Origin: Escherichia coli
Lineage (GTDB): Bacteria; Pseudomonadota; Gammaproteobacteria; Enterobacterales; Enterobacteriaceae
NCBI RefSeq assembly: GCF_003019035.1
Contig: NZ_CP027447.1
Length of the DNA: 64,000 nucleotides
Strand: one strand, 5' to 3'
The notes beneath the pieces were generated by a model. The model saw only the letters and a list, made by a program, of their open reading frames with translations. It ran no database searches and was not told the DNA's origin. The position numbers were made by a program, and so were the translations under genes. Positions 2,820 through 64,000 of this stretch are shown here, in pieces; within the stretch, counting starts at the first letter, position 1; each line of letters starts with the position of its first letter.

Positions 2820-3581
2820 ATGGTTTCATCATTCACATCTGCCCCACGCAGCGGTTTTTACTATTTTGCGCAAGGCTGGAAGCTCGTCTCGCAACCTGGG
2901 ATTCGGCGTTTCGTTATTTTACCGCTGCTGGTCAATATTTTGTTGATGGGGGGCGCATTCTGGTGGCTATTTACGCAGCTCGATGTCTGGATCCCGACGC
3001 TCATGAGTTATGTTCCGGACTGGTTACAATGGCTGAGCTATCTGTTGTGGCCTCTGGCTGTCATCTCTGTGCTGTTAGTGTTTGGCTATTTCTTCTCAAC
3101 GATTGCTAACTGGATTGCCGCTCCGTTCAATGGTTTATTGGCTGAACAACTGGAAGCACGATTGACTGGCGCTACACCGCCAGATACCGGGATTTTCGGT
3201 ATCATGAAAGATGTGCCGCGAATCATGAAACGCGAATGGCAAAAATTTGCCTGGTATCTGCCGCGCGCAATTGTATTGCTAATTCTTTACTTCATCCCTG
3301 GTATTGGGCAAACCGTCGCGCCGGTACTATGGTTCCTGTTTAGCGCCTGGATGTTAGCCATCCAGTATTGCGATTACCCCTTCGATAACCACAAAGTGCC
3401 GTTTAAAGAGATGCGCACCGCCCTGCGCACACGCAAAATCACCAATATGCAGTTTGGTGCTTTAACCAGCCTGTTTACGATGATCCCGTTGCTTAATCTG
3501 TTCATCATGCCCGTTGCCGTTTGTGGTGCGACGGCGATGTGGGTCGATTGCTATCGCGATAAACACGCGATGTGGCGGTAA
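2820..3581 (+). CDS. cysZ: Sulfate transporter CysZ
   Basis: 253-aa [34 protein letters not shown]..., polytopic membrane protein, position upstream of cysK. Confidence 0.9.
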
Positions 3582-25249: not shown

Positions 25250-25294
25250 GATGTTAATGCCGGGTGTTGTAGGACACCCGGCACCTCCGACAGG

Positions 25295-41389: not shown

Positions 41390-41417
41390 CGCTTACCCTG
41401 AATATTCAGGGTAAGCG
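41390..41417. terminator. Perfect 28-bp palindrome between the accessory cassette and maeB (bidirectional terminator candidate)
   Basis: cgcttaccctgaata/tattcagggtaagcg: 13-bp arms with a 2-nt loop, between convergent ORF 40485..41387(+) and maeB(-). Confidence 0.55.
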
Positions 41418-59159: not shown

Positions 59160-61175
59160 TCAGTGAAAAAATTGCCATTGCGTTATGCGATCGCGCAAAC
59201 GCTCAGTGCGAACATCATCAAGTGCGTATAGCGCCTGCGCGGCCTCTTCCCGCTGACGGACCAGTAACAGCTTACGGCCTGAAAGTTTAAGTGTGGTACA
59301 TAACTGCGCGTCACTGGCGTTTTTCTGTAAACGCCCACGCAGCGCCGGTAATGCCATTTCGCTGGTTTGTAACAGACGCATTAAGCAACCTAACGACGTT
59401 AATAGCGGACGATGAGCGAAAGCAAAACCGGCCAGTTCAAGCCAGTCGTCGTCAGAAAGGACGGCATCATTTAGTGGATCAACAGGGAGCGTTTCGCCAT
59501 TCCACTTTGCGAGAGCTTGCGCATCGCGACGTAAACGGTAATGCTCACGTTCAGCCAGCTGTTTACCCGCATCACTCATCGGTAACAGCGCCATCGCCGT
59601 ATAGCAACCGCTGCTGGCTTCACGATGATTACCCATTCGCACCAGCACAAAACCGCAGCGTTGCCAGAAACGCCATAATTCCCCGGTGTAACCAAAACTC
59701 ACCGAAAGATAGTCGAGGTCATGCGTATATTGCAAAGCACCAGCAATCAGTTGCTGACCTGTGCCTTCCCGCTGACGAGCCGGATGAACTGCTATCCGGC
59801 TAACCCGCCGTCCACGCAATGTCGCCGCCAGTGGATTGCTGCCGTGCGCCGCCAGCGACTGGGCCACCAGATTACCCCGCGGGCGACGAAAACCTGCCCA
59901 TACCGCCTGACTGAGTTCTTGAGATAATCCGCCCTCATCCACCAGCCACAGCGCCCCGGCAATCGCGTTTTCGCCAGCCGCCTGTAAAAAATGTTGCCCT
60001 GGTGCATCCATCATGCGGCGTAAATCCAGCGGCGAAGTCCGGTAGTGCGCACCAGACAATAATTGATAAACCTTTAACGGCGTTTGTGGCTCGCTTCGCC
60101 ATAACGTCTGTTCAAATGCGGAAATGACGATATTGCCTTGTGGTGTGTGGGTGAAGTTTTCATCGTCAAAAACCAGTGCCTCACTAACCATTTTTTCCAG
60201 CGGGCATCCCTGTGCCCAGCGGATCGGCTGTTGCAGTTCAAAACGGTGTAAATGCGGAAAGCGAGCGCAAAATTTCAGCAAAAAACCACGTCCCGTGCCT
60301 TCGTAGCCCTGCACCGTAGTGGTTAACAACGTTCGAGGAAAACGCGATACCAGTTGATGCAACAACGGCGCAGGTATGGCTGCGGCTTCATCGACCACCA
60401 GCCAGTCGGCTTGCTCATCGCTGGCTAACAAGGCATCCGGCGCAATAAAGCGAAACTTCTCGCCCGCAAATTGTGCCAGTACATACGTTGCCGCTTTTGC
60501 GGGCGCGGTGACAATCGTACTACCCGCAATACGAGAAATGAGTTGCCCTGCCAGCGCCGATTTACCGCGCCCACGCGCAGCCGTTACCACCGCCACGCCC
60601 AATGGCATGGTCAGTAGCTGCTGTAAGAGTTGCTGTTGTTCTGGCTGTGGTGCGCCGGTCGCGGGGTGCCAGTCAGTACGGGGAGTAAAATGCGCCAACG
60701 TGAACGGCTGGTTCTGCCGCCAGAGGATAGCGTCGTTATTCGCCGTAAGTACGCGTTTGAGATGCTGGACAAAATGCGGCGTCGCAATAGGGTCAGGGCA
60801 ATCACTCCAGCGCAGCGAGTCGGCATCAGGTTGGTTTTCCCACTCTTCCCATACAGGGAGTAACAACACCAGCCAGCTTCCCGCTTTCAACGTTCCGCTA
60901 AGTGCCGCAAAGGCAGCGGCATCAAAGCCGTGGCGGGCGTCGAATACCGCATGCCGGAACTCGCGCCCAAGTAAAGTTTGTAGCGCCGAGGGAGAACAGT
61001 GGTTTTCAGCATCTGGCTGCGGCGAAATCCACAGCCAGTCGCCAGGTAAGGCATCACGCAACTTAAGCGCATGATCAAAACACCAACCCTCTTCCCCGCT
61101 CAACACCAGCAAGCGGCGGATCCCTTCACGTTTCATTTGCGCTGTTAATGTGTGAAGCGCAGTCAGTTCAGCCAT
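59160..61175 (-). CDS. tmcA: tRNA(Met) cytidine acetyltransferase TmcA
   Basis: 671-aa ORF MAELTALHTLTAQMKREGIRRLLVLSGEEGWCFDH...; Walker A GRGKSA and C-terminal GNAT domain. Confidence 0.9.
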   Translation of the reverse strand: MAELTALHTLTAQMKREGIRRLLVLSGEEGWCFDHALKLRDALPGDWLWISPQPDAENHCSPSALQTLLGREFRHAVFDARHGFDAAAFAALSGTLKAGSWLVLLLPVWEEWENQPDADSLRWSDCPDPIATPHFVQHLKRVLTANNDAILWRQNQPFTLAHFTPRTDWHPATGAPQPEQQQLLQQLLTMPLGVAVVTAARGRGKSALAGQLISRIAGSTIVTAPAKAATYVLAQFAGEKFRFIAPDALLASDEQADWLVVDEAAAIPAPLLHQLVSRFPRTLLTTTVQGYEGTGRGFLLKFCARFPHLHRFELQQPIRWAQGCPLEKMVSEALVFDDENFTHTPQGNIVISAFEQTLWRSEPQTPLKVYQLLSGAHYRTSPLDLRRMMDAPGQHFLQAAGENAIAGALWLVDEGGLSQELSQAVWAGFRRPRGNLVAQSLAAHGSNPLAATLRGRRVSRIAVHPARQREGTGQQLIAGALQYTHDLDYLSVSFGYTGELWRFWQRCGFVLVRMGNHREASSGCYTAMALLPMSDAGKQLAEREHYRLRRDAQALAKWNGETLPVDPLNDAVLSDDDWLELAGFAFAHRPLLTSLGCLMRLLQTSEMALPALRGRLQKNASDAQLCTTLKLSGRKLLLVRQREEAAQALYALDDVRTERLRDRITQWQFFH

Positions 61176-61189
61176 CCCTGCCCCGGAAG

Positions 61190-62053
61190 TTAAATGCTTT
61201 TACCAAAAGTATTGCATTGTGCCGGATCGCCGCTGTCGAAACCACGTTTAAACCAGCTGTAGCGTTGCTGAGAAGTGCCATGAGTGAAACTGTCTGGTAC
61301 TACTCGCCCCTGACTTTGCTGTTGTAAACGGTCATCGCCGATGGCCTGCGCCGCGTTCAGCGCCTCTTCCAGATCGCCGGTTTCCAGAACACCTTGCTGC
61401 TGCATACTATGCCCCCAGACACCGGCAAAACAGTCGGCCTGGAGTTCCATACGCACAGATAAGCGGTTCACTTCCGCCTGCGTCGCGTTTTCTTGCAGTT
61501 GACGAACTTTCGGCTCGATGCCTAACAGTTTCTGCACATGATGACCGACTTCATGGGCGATAACGTACCCCTGGGCAAAATCGCCATCCGCGCCAAGTTT
61601 GTCTTTCATGTCATCATAGAAGGAGAGATCGATATAAACCGTGCCATCCGCCGGGCAATAGAACGGTCCCATAATGGATTGGCCCGCCCCGCAGCCGGTG
61701 CGCGTCATTCCACGGTACATGACCAGCTTCGGTTGCTGATAGGTTTTACCCATCTTCTCGAATTGCTGTCCCCAGGTGTCTTCCGTGGTTGCCAGAATCA
61801 CCGAAGTGAATTTTGCGGCTTCGTCTTCATTAGGACTAATTGACCGTGTTGATTGCTGTTGGGAAACCGGCTGTCCGGTCATCAACCCGGTTAAATCAAC
61901 GCCATAGTAGCCTGCAACCAGCACGACTATCAGTAAAATCAGCCCGCCTTTACCGCTTGGCAGGCGAAAACCTGGACCGCCCATTGACGGACCACCAGAG
62001 CTGTTGCGCCTGTCTTCAACATTGTCACTTTCACGTCGCCCTTGCCAACGCAT
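61190..62053 (-). CDS. ypfJ: Putative zinc metalloprotease-like protein YpfJ
   Basis: 287-aa [24 protein letters not shown]...; HEVGHH zinc-binding motif. Confidence 0.85.
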
Positions 62054-62220
62054 AGATACCTCAACAATATATTCATTATAGAAATGATCGTAGGTGGTTC
62101 AGAGGAAGATTACCACAGGAAAGCGGGATGAAATGGCGGAGGAATGAGCGTTCAATGCACATCTTCCGAGAGCGGTTGTCTTGCCGTGCCAGCTGCACGG
62201 CAAGATGATGAACAGAAAAA

Positions 62221-62934
62221 TCAGTCCAGCTGTACACCCAGGCGGCGGGCGACGGCTTCATAGGCCTCGATCAGGCCACCGAGGCTCTGGCGGAAACGGT
62301 CTTTGTCCATTTTCTCCAGCGTTTCTTTGTCCCACAAGCGGCTGCCGTCCGGGGAGAACTCATCGCCCAGTACCACTTCACCTTTGTACAGACCAAACTC
62401 CAGCTTGAAGTCGACCAGAATGAGACCAGCATCATCGAACAGTTTTTTCAGCACGTCGTTCGCTTTGTAGGTCAGCTCTTTCATGCGTGCCAGGTTCTCT
62501 TTGCTTACCCAGCCAAAGGTTTCGCAGTAAGATTCGTTGACCATCGGATCGTGCATGGCGTCGTTTTTCAGGAACAGATCGAACAGCGGCGGGTTCAGCT
62601 CAATACCTTCTTCGATTCCAAGACGTTTCACCAGAGAGCCAGCAGCACGGTTACGCACGACACACTCAACCGGCACCATATCCAGCTTTTTCACCAGACA
62701 TTCGGTATCGGAGAGCAGACGCTCCATTTGAGTCGGGATACCCGCTTCAGCCAGTTTGCTCATAATGAAGTAGTTGAACTTGTTGTTCACCATACCTTTG
62801 CGATCAAACTGCTCAATGCGCGCGCCATCCCCTGCTGACGTATCATTGCGGAATTCGAGCACCAACAGGTCCGGGTTTTCCGTGCTGTATACGGTTTTCG
62901 CTTTACCACGATACAACTCAGCTTGCTTTTGCAT
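62221..62934 (-). CDS. purC: SAICAR synthetase
   Basis: ORF track 62221..62943(-) trimmed to [37 protein letters not shown]; 237 aa. Confidence 0.95.
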
Positions 62935-63000
62935 CTTTATCACTCCTGGGTGTGAATTAACGTTTTAAAATCTATTGCTGTCTGGTGTGCCGGATGTTTT

Positions 63001-63034
63001 GTCGGATGCGGCAAGAACGCCTTATCCGACCTAC
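63001..63034. repeat. REP-like palindromic element upstream of purC
   Basis: gtcggatgcggcaagaacgccttatccgacctac (REP-type). Confidence 0.55.
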
Positions 63035-63087
63035 GTCCGACAAACAAATTTCGTGCGAATTACCGCTAAAATCGCATTTTTCTGCCG

Positions 63088-63103
63088 ACGCACACGTTTG
63101 CGT
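63088..63103. promoter_or_regulatory. Candidate PurR operator (PUR box) in the purC upstream region
   Basis: acgcacacgtttgcgt: 16-bp near-palindrome matching the PUR-box consensus (ACGCAAACGTTTTCGT), 154 bp upstream of the purC start. Confidence 0.5.
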
Positions 63104-63112
63104 ATCATATCA

Positions 63113-63140
63113 GAAAAAAGGGCCGGATGACTCCAGCCCT
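63113..63140 (-). terminator. Intrinsic terminator after bamC
   Basis: On the minus strand: gggcugg-agucau-ccggccc hairpin (one G-U pair) followed by uuuuuu, 7 bp after the bamC stop. Confidence 0.55.
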
Positions 63141-63146
63141 GTATTT

Positions 63147-64000
63147 TTACTTGCTAAACGCAGCCTGGAAGACAGCTACCAGCGCGTCATTCTGACTCTG
63201 AGTCAGAGTATGACCTTTCGGATCGATGAACTGTAGGCTGCTGCGGTTATCTAAATCGCCAACCTGCAGTTTATAGTCACCGGATGCCAGGCCTGGATCG
63301 CTCGCGCCCAGTTCCTGCCAGTCGCTGTCAGACAGCGGCTTGTAAGTTACGGCCATGTTACCCTGCGAACGGGTGCTGTCGGTCACTTTCATGCCCACTT
63401 TTTCCAGCGCCGCTGGCAGACGTTGCCAAACCACATTGAACGGCCCGCGTACGACCAGCATCGGTAAACCGGTGTCATCAGCTGCACTTTGTACGTCCAT
63501 AGTGGTGGAGGCACGATTTTGCGCAGCGTTCGCGGCGTCAGTGGCAGATTTATCCAGACCGGCGGAAATAACGTTCATCATCTCCGTGCTGTAACGCTGC
63601 ATGGAAGCCGCGTCTGCAACCGGTTTGCCCGCCTGTTCCAGGTTCAGCAGTTTAACCGTAACCGCCTGCTGATAACCCTGCGGCTTAACAGAGATTTGAT
63701 AACGACCACGATACTGCTCGTCTTCGTCCAGACGGTTCCATTGTACCCAATCGGTGGTCAGTGTCTGACCAGCATCATCACGTTGGGTGATGGTGTAGTT
63801 TTTCGCCTGCAGCACGCTAACCACCTGCGGCCACAGAGTATTGCCACGACCATTTTCCACCAGCAATGAAGCGGTATCGCCCGTGAACTGGGTACGCGCG
63901 CCAGAAACCAGTGCCAGCGGCTGGGCTGGTGGACGAATGTCCAGCGCCTTACCGACAGCACCACTACCGTTGGTCACCGGGATTGCATAATCACCGGAGG
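63147..64000 (-). CDS. bamC: Outer membrane protein assembly lipoprotein BamC (NlpB), partial (5' end beyond window end)
   Basis: Reverse frame open to the window edge (...[33 protein letters not shown]... to C-terminal ...VFQAAFSK); the Met shown by the ORF track at 63977 is an internal Val codon. Confidence 0.9.

Follow-up and report, generated by a model that had tools for sequence, protein, structure and literature searches.

A conserved stem-loop without a U-tract in the 3′ UTR of Escherichia coli purC as a candidate 3′-end-defining element

Does a perfect hairpin that lies just past the purC stop codon and lacks a U-tract end a transcript, protect one, bind a protein, or do nothing at all? 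The last 5 kb of the window (the whole 64-kb stretch of DNA that was analysed) hold tmcA, ypfJ, purC and bamC of E. coli, each encoded on the minus strand, and match annotated E. coli chromosomes at 100% identity. The encoded PurC protein is 100% identical to WP_001295467.1. Its start at 62934 is taken from the 714-nt CDS of RefSeq, while the list of open reading frames begins at an upstream GTG (62221-62943). The purC-ypfJ spacer is 167 nt long, and the hairpin is located in it, within the purC 3′ UTR.

59160-61175, minus strand: tmcA
61190-62053, minus strand: ypfJ, a zinc metallopeptidase gene of the KPN_02809 family and the next same-strand gene, 125 nt past the hairpin (RefSeq annotation)
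62221-62934, minus strand: purC, SAICAR synthetase, 237 aa, with its TGA stop codon at 62221-62223 (RefSeq annotation)
63147 onward, minus strand: bamC

An earlier note on this DNA had described a perfect 10-bp stem with a 5-nt loop, 17 bp after the purC stop and with no T-run on either strand, and this description holds. The sequence cttgccgtgc-cagct-gcacggcaag was confirmed at 62180-62204, in the purC-ypfJ spacer. A flanking T/A pair lengthens the stem to 11 perfect base pairs around the 5-nt loop, and the hairpin as a whole occupies 62179-62205. Counting from the purC stop codon, the 10-bp stem starts at the 17th nt and the 11-bp stem at the 16th, with 15 nt in between. RNA of the purC sense (minus) strand reads UCUUGCCGUGC-AGCUG-GCACGGCAAGA.

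62179-62205, minus strand: hairpin of 11 perfect pairs, without a U-tract
62205-62195, minus strand: 5′ arm of the hairpin, UCUUGCCGUGC
62194-62190, minus strand: loop of the hairpin, AGCUG
62189-62179, minus strand: 3′ arm of the hairpin, GCACGGCAAGA
62206-62220, minus strand: U-rich 15-nt spacer UUUUUCUGUUCAUCA from the purC stop codon to the hairpin, its first 8 nt common to the vapBC allele described below

Seven of the 11 stem pairs are G-C, which makes this a G+C-rich stem of terminator-like size. The minus-strand hairpin has a predicted folding energy of -20.1 kcal/mol (z = -4.04), a value equalled by none of 200 shuffles, and it is retained in the minimum free energy fold of the entire spacer of ~170 nt. 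Plus-strand RNA would fold into a longer stem of 15 bp through added G·U pairs (-23.5 kcal/mol), but that strand has no gene and no reported 3′ end here, and a plus-strand role was rejected. The minus strand continues after the stem as ACAACCGCUC and the plus strand as AUGAUGAACA, neither with a T-run. With a U-tract defined as at least about 5 U within the 8 nt after the stem, the minus-strand tail ACAACCGC lacks one, having at most one U in its first 8-9 nt; the plus-strand tail AUGAUGAA is likewise not U-rich. Ahead of the stem, the sequence is rich in U rather than A and contains no A-tract. A consensus terminator scan made no call at the purC hairpin, though it did call the bamC terminator ~900 nt away. 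Since both a U-tract and an A-tract are missing, release of RNA polymerase driven by the hairpin is not expected.

63119-63140, minus strand: canonical intrinsic terminator of bamC, AGGGCTGGAGTCATCCGGCCCT followed by TTTTTT, with its 3′ end placed by Term-seq at 2,597,798/9 of MG1655 (Adams 2021)

A search of the 64-kb window for perfect inverted repeats with arms of at least 10 bp and loops of 3-8 nt gave six distinct ones, corresponding to 13 raw matches (nested ones counted) vs ~1 raw match per dinucleotide shuffle. Three of the six are bidirectional terminators flanked by A/T runs, and three, including the purC hairpin, are without a U-tract. The other two of these are a 10-bp stem at 25258-25283 (TGCCGGGTGT-TGTAGG-ACACCCGGCA), between two co-directional minus-strand open reading frames, and a 12-bp stem at 41390-41417 (CGCTTACCCTGA-ATAT-TCAGGGTAAGCG), between convergent ones; both are possible further members of this class of U-less 3′ stem-loops. 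No second copy of the 25-mer was found in the window with up to 3 mismatches allowed.

Several candidate identities were set aside. An Rfam scan of positions 61000-64000, with E-values up to 10, returned no match at the hairpin, its one notable hit being the sub-threshold REP-like match upstream of purC described below. It is not a REP/BIME element or another dispersed repeat, as it occurs at one locus per genome in 3805 genomes and nowhere else (86-nt and 35-nt queries, E-value 10). A 3′-UTR-derived Hfq-dependent sRNA was discarded for want of a U-tail and of an Rfam sRNA match, and an RNase III site because the 11-bp stem is well under ~two helical turns. A 28-codon open reading frame (MCIERSFL...), which starts from the ATG in GGAAGATGTGC, is not a gene, as this ATG is ATA in K-12 and in other alleles.

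Among seven distinct E. coli alleles of the spacer, 13 of its first 75 positions are variable and none of the 22 stem positions is (Fisher one-sided p = 0.007), an invariance that within one species could come partly from recent shared ancestry. Two of the five loop positions vary among the same alleles, and the 92 nt adjoining ypfJ contain just 2 variable sites. The intact stem with its 4-nt flanks (an exact 35-mer, in three loop variants) is present in at least 3794 of the 3805 genomes that carry the hairpin allele, the loop being AGCUG in 2067, UGCUG in 1652 and UACUG in 75 of them. In E. albertii (8 loci) the same hairpin is found with one change in the stem, C to U at the loop-closing pair; this pair stays closed as G·U in purC-sense RNA, while RNA of the opposite strand would have an A/C mismatch there. 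This is the only stem substitution seen, and there is no compensatory double substitution in the stem among these sequences. The comparison indicates that the hairpin predates the split between E. coli and E. albertii. It also behaves as a selected RNA structure would on the purC strand, because the conservation is specific to the stem and the E. albertii change is compatible with wobble pairing.

The earlier note was right about the hairpin itself and missed that it lies in one of two E. coli alleles. The hairpin segment is found in 3805 of 5426 complete E. coli genomes, at a single-copy locus. In 1615-1621 genomes (30%), an 825-nt vapBC cassette is located at the same place, and the two alleles together account for all 5426.

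62146-62212, minus strand: allele-specific 67-nt segment that includes the hairpin and is swapped for the 825-nt vapBC cassette in 30% of genomes

The borders shared by the two alleles are TGATTTTTCTG (62223-62213) and ATTCCTCCGCC... (from 62145 downward), and both alleles have in common the 8 nt past the purC stop (UUUUUCUG) and the 89 nt ahead of the ypfJ start. Comparison of the 67-nt segment with the vapBC cassette revealed no homology and no junction repeats. The cassette encodes a vapB-vapC toxin-antitoxin pair with a PIN-domain toxin (for example in NZ_AP022215, locus L001, 1647-2470), and its coding part is ~77% identical to plasmid vapBC genes. It has a hairpin of its own, UUUAGCCGGAGG-GUA-CUCCGGCUAAA, ~21 nt past the same purC stop. 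This hairpin is also without a U-tract, is followed by RNA with more C than G (C 20, G 9), and is invariant between diverged subtypes of the cassette. Both alleles are old, since each is internally diverged. An exact 11-mer, TTAGCCGGAGG, is common to the vapBC-allele hairpin (L001, 2437-2462) and the purC hairpin of Pseudescherichia (L032/L033, ~3230-3260), and the vapBC-allele hairpin also resembles that of Citrobacter (TGAGCCGG...CCGGCTCA). The cassette's flank on the purC side may be of greater age or foreign, and either E. coli allele may be the ancestral one. A literature search for vapBC with purC, or purC with ypfJ, in E. coli found no relevant description; the replacement of one allele by the other is without a description in the searchable literature and is the main point of added interest at this locus.

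Beyond Escherichia, the order purC then ypfJ is kept in most of 80 Enterobacterales loci fetched for comparison. A single hairpin of -14 kcal/mol or lower within 80 nt of the stop is present in 94% of 53 purC-ypfJ spacers vs 9% of shuffles. The hairpin sequences themselves are unrelated between genera: Enterobacter has GCCAAAGGATG... and Citrobacter TGAGCCGG..., Kluyvera, Leclercia and others each have their own, and alignment of the hairpins across genera was uninformative, with no homology found. Cedecea, Shimwellia, Serratia, the locus labelled L035 and some others have a U-tract after the hairpin, which makes it a canonical intrinsic terminator there; Escherichia, Citrobacter, Enterobacter, Kluyvera and Leclercia lack such a tract. 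Because position and structure are conserved and sequence is not, the site is best explained as a purC transcript boundary with a role at the RNA level, not in DNA recognition. The earlier suggestion of a protein-binding palindrome finds no support in this pattern across genera. A transcription-factor operator is likewise unsupported, given the unrelated hairpin sequences in orthologous spacers and the lack of another genomic copy.

Some purC-ypfJ spacers are 405-1831 nt long and contain unrelated genes (L038 of Siccibacter, L070 of Proteus, and L055 and L057 of Budvicia). The Siccibacter spacer has open reading frames of 311 aa and 144 aa, NmrA-like and HxlR-like by eye; that of Proteus has open reading frames of 203 aa and 232 aa, GST-like and an HTH regulator by eye; and that of Budvicia has a 160-aa open reading frame of no assigned function, which a second Budvicia species has in truncated form. 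The junction between purC and ypfJ appears to tolerate insertions repeatedly.

In distant Enterobacterales, a PurR-box-like 16-mer, ACGCAATCGTTTACGT, was observed 2 nt past the purC stop, ahead of a terminator hairpin. It occurs in Mangrovibacter, Cedecea, Budvicia, Yersinia, Proteus and Rahnella, with 2-3 mismatches to ACGCAAACGTTTGCGT, the 16-mer taken here as the PurR-box consensus.

PurR-box-like 16-mer in the compared loci: 2-18 nt past the purC stop in L026, L029, L030, L035, L055, L057, L063 and L070; 25 nt past it in L047

Such a 16-mer past purC may be a roadblock or a ypfJ operator, and no PurR-like box was found downstream of purC in E. coli. The only close match in the 64-kb window, ACGCACACGTTTGCGT at 63088-63103 (1 mismatch to ACGCAAACGTTTGCGT), sits upstream of purC, just downstream of the bamC terminator. 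Between this box and the purC start, a REP-like imperfect palindrome (62987-63031, minus strand) lies in the bamC-purC spacer, with a sub-threshold match to the REP-derived Rfam family naRNA4 (31.9 bits vs a gathering score of 59.5). It would belong to the purC 5′ UTR should the purC promoter lie close to the PurR box.

The RNA downstream of the hairpin is rich in C, poor in G and weakly structured by prediction. The first 78 nt past the stem (C 27, G 13) rank among the top 2% of all 78-nt windows, both strands counted, and the best 78-nt window downstream (C 28, G 9) in the top 0.1%.

62080-62157, minus strand: C-rich, G-poor untranslated tract (C 28, G 9 in 78 nt) of rut-like composition
62086-62115, minus strand: block TGGTAATC-N13-CCTACGATC upstream of ypfJ, near-invariant in ~25 Enterobacteriaceae spacers and in both E. 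coli alleles

This downstream result is one of composition only, and the C-rich tract overlaps the conserved block upstream of ypfJ; the composition may not mark a rut site, as that block is conserved for another reason. The block, in which TGGTAATC may carry an added (C), is far more conserved than the remaining spacer sequence, with the cross-genus consensus TGGTAATCC-N9-AACCgCCTACGATC. Its promoter-like parts are a -35-like TGGTAA, a 17-nt spacer and a -10-like TACGAT, and a TATAAT hexamer follows shortly downstream, 21 nt ahead of the ypfJ ATG. The block probably comprises promoter or operator elements for ypfJ-tmcA, that is, the start of the next transcription unit.

In LB, purC is presumably repressed by PurR. 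Published 3′ ends were located on the window by a coordinate conversion anchored on the end of the bamC terminator (2,597,798 of K-12 = window 63114, an offset of ~2,534,684). In the Term-seq data of Adams 2021 (PMC7815308), no dominant 3′ end is listed at ~2,596,600-2,597,099 of MG1655 in LB at OD 0.4, LB at OD 2.0 or M63 glucose. The curated lists of the same study for the three conditions have no entry for purC, ypfJ or tmcA, and do have the bamC end at 2,597,798. Its bicyclomycin map (Supplementary file 2) shows no Rho termination region near purC-ypfJ on the same strand, and the TERMITe supplements have no purC entry. The Adams lists comprise ~1000 dominant ends each, and the bicyclomycin experiment was done in LB. 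Since so few ends are listed, and since purC is presumably repressed in that medium, the lack of an entry was weighed lightly: it is mild evidence against a strong 3′ end or a strong Rho site, which weakens such a reading and does not refute it. Condition-dependent read-through transcripts of a 'dapA-ypfJ operon' are named in a figure legend of the SMRT-Cappable-seq study (PMC6131387), and operon lists keep purC apart from ypfJ-tmcA (PMC5927463, supplement). Leaky termination fits both, as dapA-ypfJ transcripts are reported and the lists separate purC from ypfJ-tmcA.

The best explanation, to which a probability of roughly 55% is assigned, is that the hairpin is an RNA stem-loop in the purC 3′ UTR that marks and protects the 3′ end of purC mRNA at the boundary with ypfJ-tmcA, in combination with leaky termination of the Rho type. 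It is favoured because of the conservation of the stem, the G·U pair of E. albertii, the hairpin of the vapBC allele, the hairpins in 94% of compared spacers, and the excess of C over G downstream. The earlier note had listed an RNA stability element, a Rho-dependent terminator region and a protein-binding palindrome as options, and the first two are the best supported, by stem conservation, by hairpins kept in position and by the C-over-G composition. Three parts of this reading are inferences: an end of purC RNA at the hairpin, termination by Rho, and a longer half-life of purC mRNA.

In the proposed course of events, the ribosome would release at the purC UGA, and the hairpin would fold co-transcriptionally 15 nt downstream, just clear of the ribosome footprint. 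Without a U-tract, the hairpin by itself would release RNA polymerase inefficiently, and polymerase would run on through the next 125 nt, where the RNA is untranslated, rich in C, poor in G and weakly structured. A fraction of the transcripts would be terminated there, most plausibly by Rho, and the remainder would read into ypfJ. PNPase and RNase II would then trim terminated or cleaved RNA in the 3′-to-5′ direction up to the base of the hairpin, which would block them and leave a stable, defined end.

The first rival dispenses with Rho: the hairpin could itself stop a fraction of polymerases as a weak intrinsic terminator of non-canonical form, perhaps with help from NusA or NusG, and be the local descendant of the canonical purC terminators of other Enterobacterales. 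Such a terminator would occupy the same place as those with a U-tract in Cedecea, Shimwellia, Serratia and L035, the stem has the right size and G+C content, and the bicyclomycin map (Adams 2021) is without a Rho termination region here. With no more than one U in the 8 nt past the stem, no A-tract and no call from the scan that recognised bamC, it is nevertheless an unlikely account; the site also has no listed Term-seq 3′ end, unlike the bamC terminator, and transcripts reading through into ypfJ are reported. Those long dapA-ypfJ transcripts would suit a second possibility, that the hairpin is a functionless relic, a former intrinsic terminator that has lost its U-tract and is kept by inertia, with purC, ypfJ and tmcA simply co-transcribed. 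A relic would also be compatible with the free turnover of hairpin sequence between genera and with the lack of a listed 3′ end or Rho signal at the site. Inertia would, however, hardly leave the stem invariant inside the most polymorphic part of the spacer, where none of the 13 variable sites affects it (p = 0.007), or intact in at least 3794 of 3805 genomes. The stem has been kept since the E. coli/E. albertii split with just a wobble-compatible change, and an independent allele, that with vapBC, also has a hairpin at this position; a relic is therefore rather doubtful.

Readings at the DNA level have far less in their favour. A binding site for a dimeric protein, such as one that regulates the ypfJ-tmcA promoter or blocks read-through, would account for a palindrome of perfect symmetry whose arms are conserved and whose centre varies, as in operators, some 65-90 nt upstream of the conserved ypfJ block and at a junction where distant genera have a PurR-box-like operator. 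It is very unlikely, given that other genera and the vapBC allele keep a hairpin and not its sequence, and that the E. albertii change preserves RNA pairing and breaks the symmetry of the DNA. Contiguous G+C-rich arms of 11 bp with a 5-nt gap are unlike typical operators, and a palindrome found once per genome is shared by no regulon. Lower still in probability, and barely credible, is an attachment-like recombination or insertion target at which vapBC cassette and 67-nt segment would replace each other. The hairpin does lie inside the exact segment that alternates with the cassette, and the spacers of Siccibacter, Proteus and Budvicia have taken up unrelated genes. Against this, direct repeats are missing at the junctions, the cassette is devoid of terminal inverted repeats, transposase and integrase, and the inserts share no homology; both alleles are old and diverged, which fits ordinary homologous recombination in the flanking genes.

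A more elaborate form of the RNA-level reading, in which the purC/ypfJ junction is a regulated gate whose hairpins set the read-through of PurR-controlled purC transcription into ypfJ-tmcA, is quite improbable. If true, it would tie a membrane metallopeptidase and an enzyme that acetylates tRNA to the purine state of the cell, and every tolerated allele or insertion would have to supply its own hairpin. The PurR-like box of distant genera, the presence of a hairpin in both E. coli alleles and the condition-dependent dapA-ypfJ transcripts are compatible with such a gate and do not show it.

The hairpin is real and under selection. Should the 3′-end-defining reading be right, it would be one more case of a class already described genome-wide in E. 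coli, and of little consequence alone. The locus is a natural experiment, with two old alleles whose different hairpins are equally far from the purC stop. Across dozens of genera, the hairpin sequence has been swapped and its position kept, which is good comparative evidence for selection on U-less hairpins. For annotation, the site is best read as a purC transcript boundary, not as a protein-binding site or the scar of a mobile element.

Three known systems offer comparisons. Canonical intrinsic terminators, such as those of bamC and of purC in Cedecea, Shimwellia and Serratia, share with the purC hairpin their stem size and G+C content. Those of the three genera also share its position relative to purC, and presumably the same ancestry of boundary function. 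Unlike them, the purC hairpin is without a U-tract or A-tract and receives no call in the terminator scan. Stabiliser hairpins within operons, including REP elements (as in the differential decay of malE-malF; PMC5927463), are likewise located between co-directional genes, and as in the malE-malF type, the purC hairpin could shield the upstream mRNA from 3′ exonucleases once long dapA-ypfJ transcripts have been cleaved. It differs from REP in being single-copy, with no REP consensus and no Rfam match. The third comparison is with the steady-state 3′ ends of Rho-dependent E. coli transcripts, which are stable stem-loops without U-rich tails (Dar & Sorek 2018; PMC6061677). These match intrinsic terminators in size and energy, have no upstream A-tract, are followed by an enrichment of C over G, and were shown to protect against PNPase and RNase II (Dar & Sorek 2018). 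The purC case departs from that class in that its 3′ end and its read-through under bicyclomycin are predictions, and in that the next same-strand gene is 125 nt away, with read-through reported. It agrees with the class in being a stable stem-loop a few nucleotides past a stop codon, with no U-rich tail or A-tract and with C in excess of G downstream, and in the conservation of its structure and not of its sequence.
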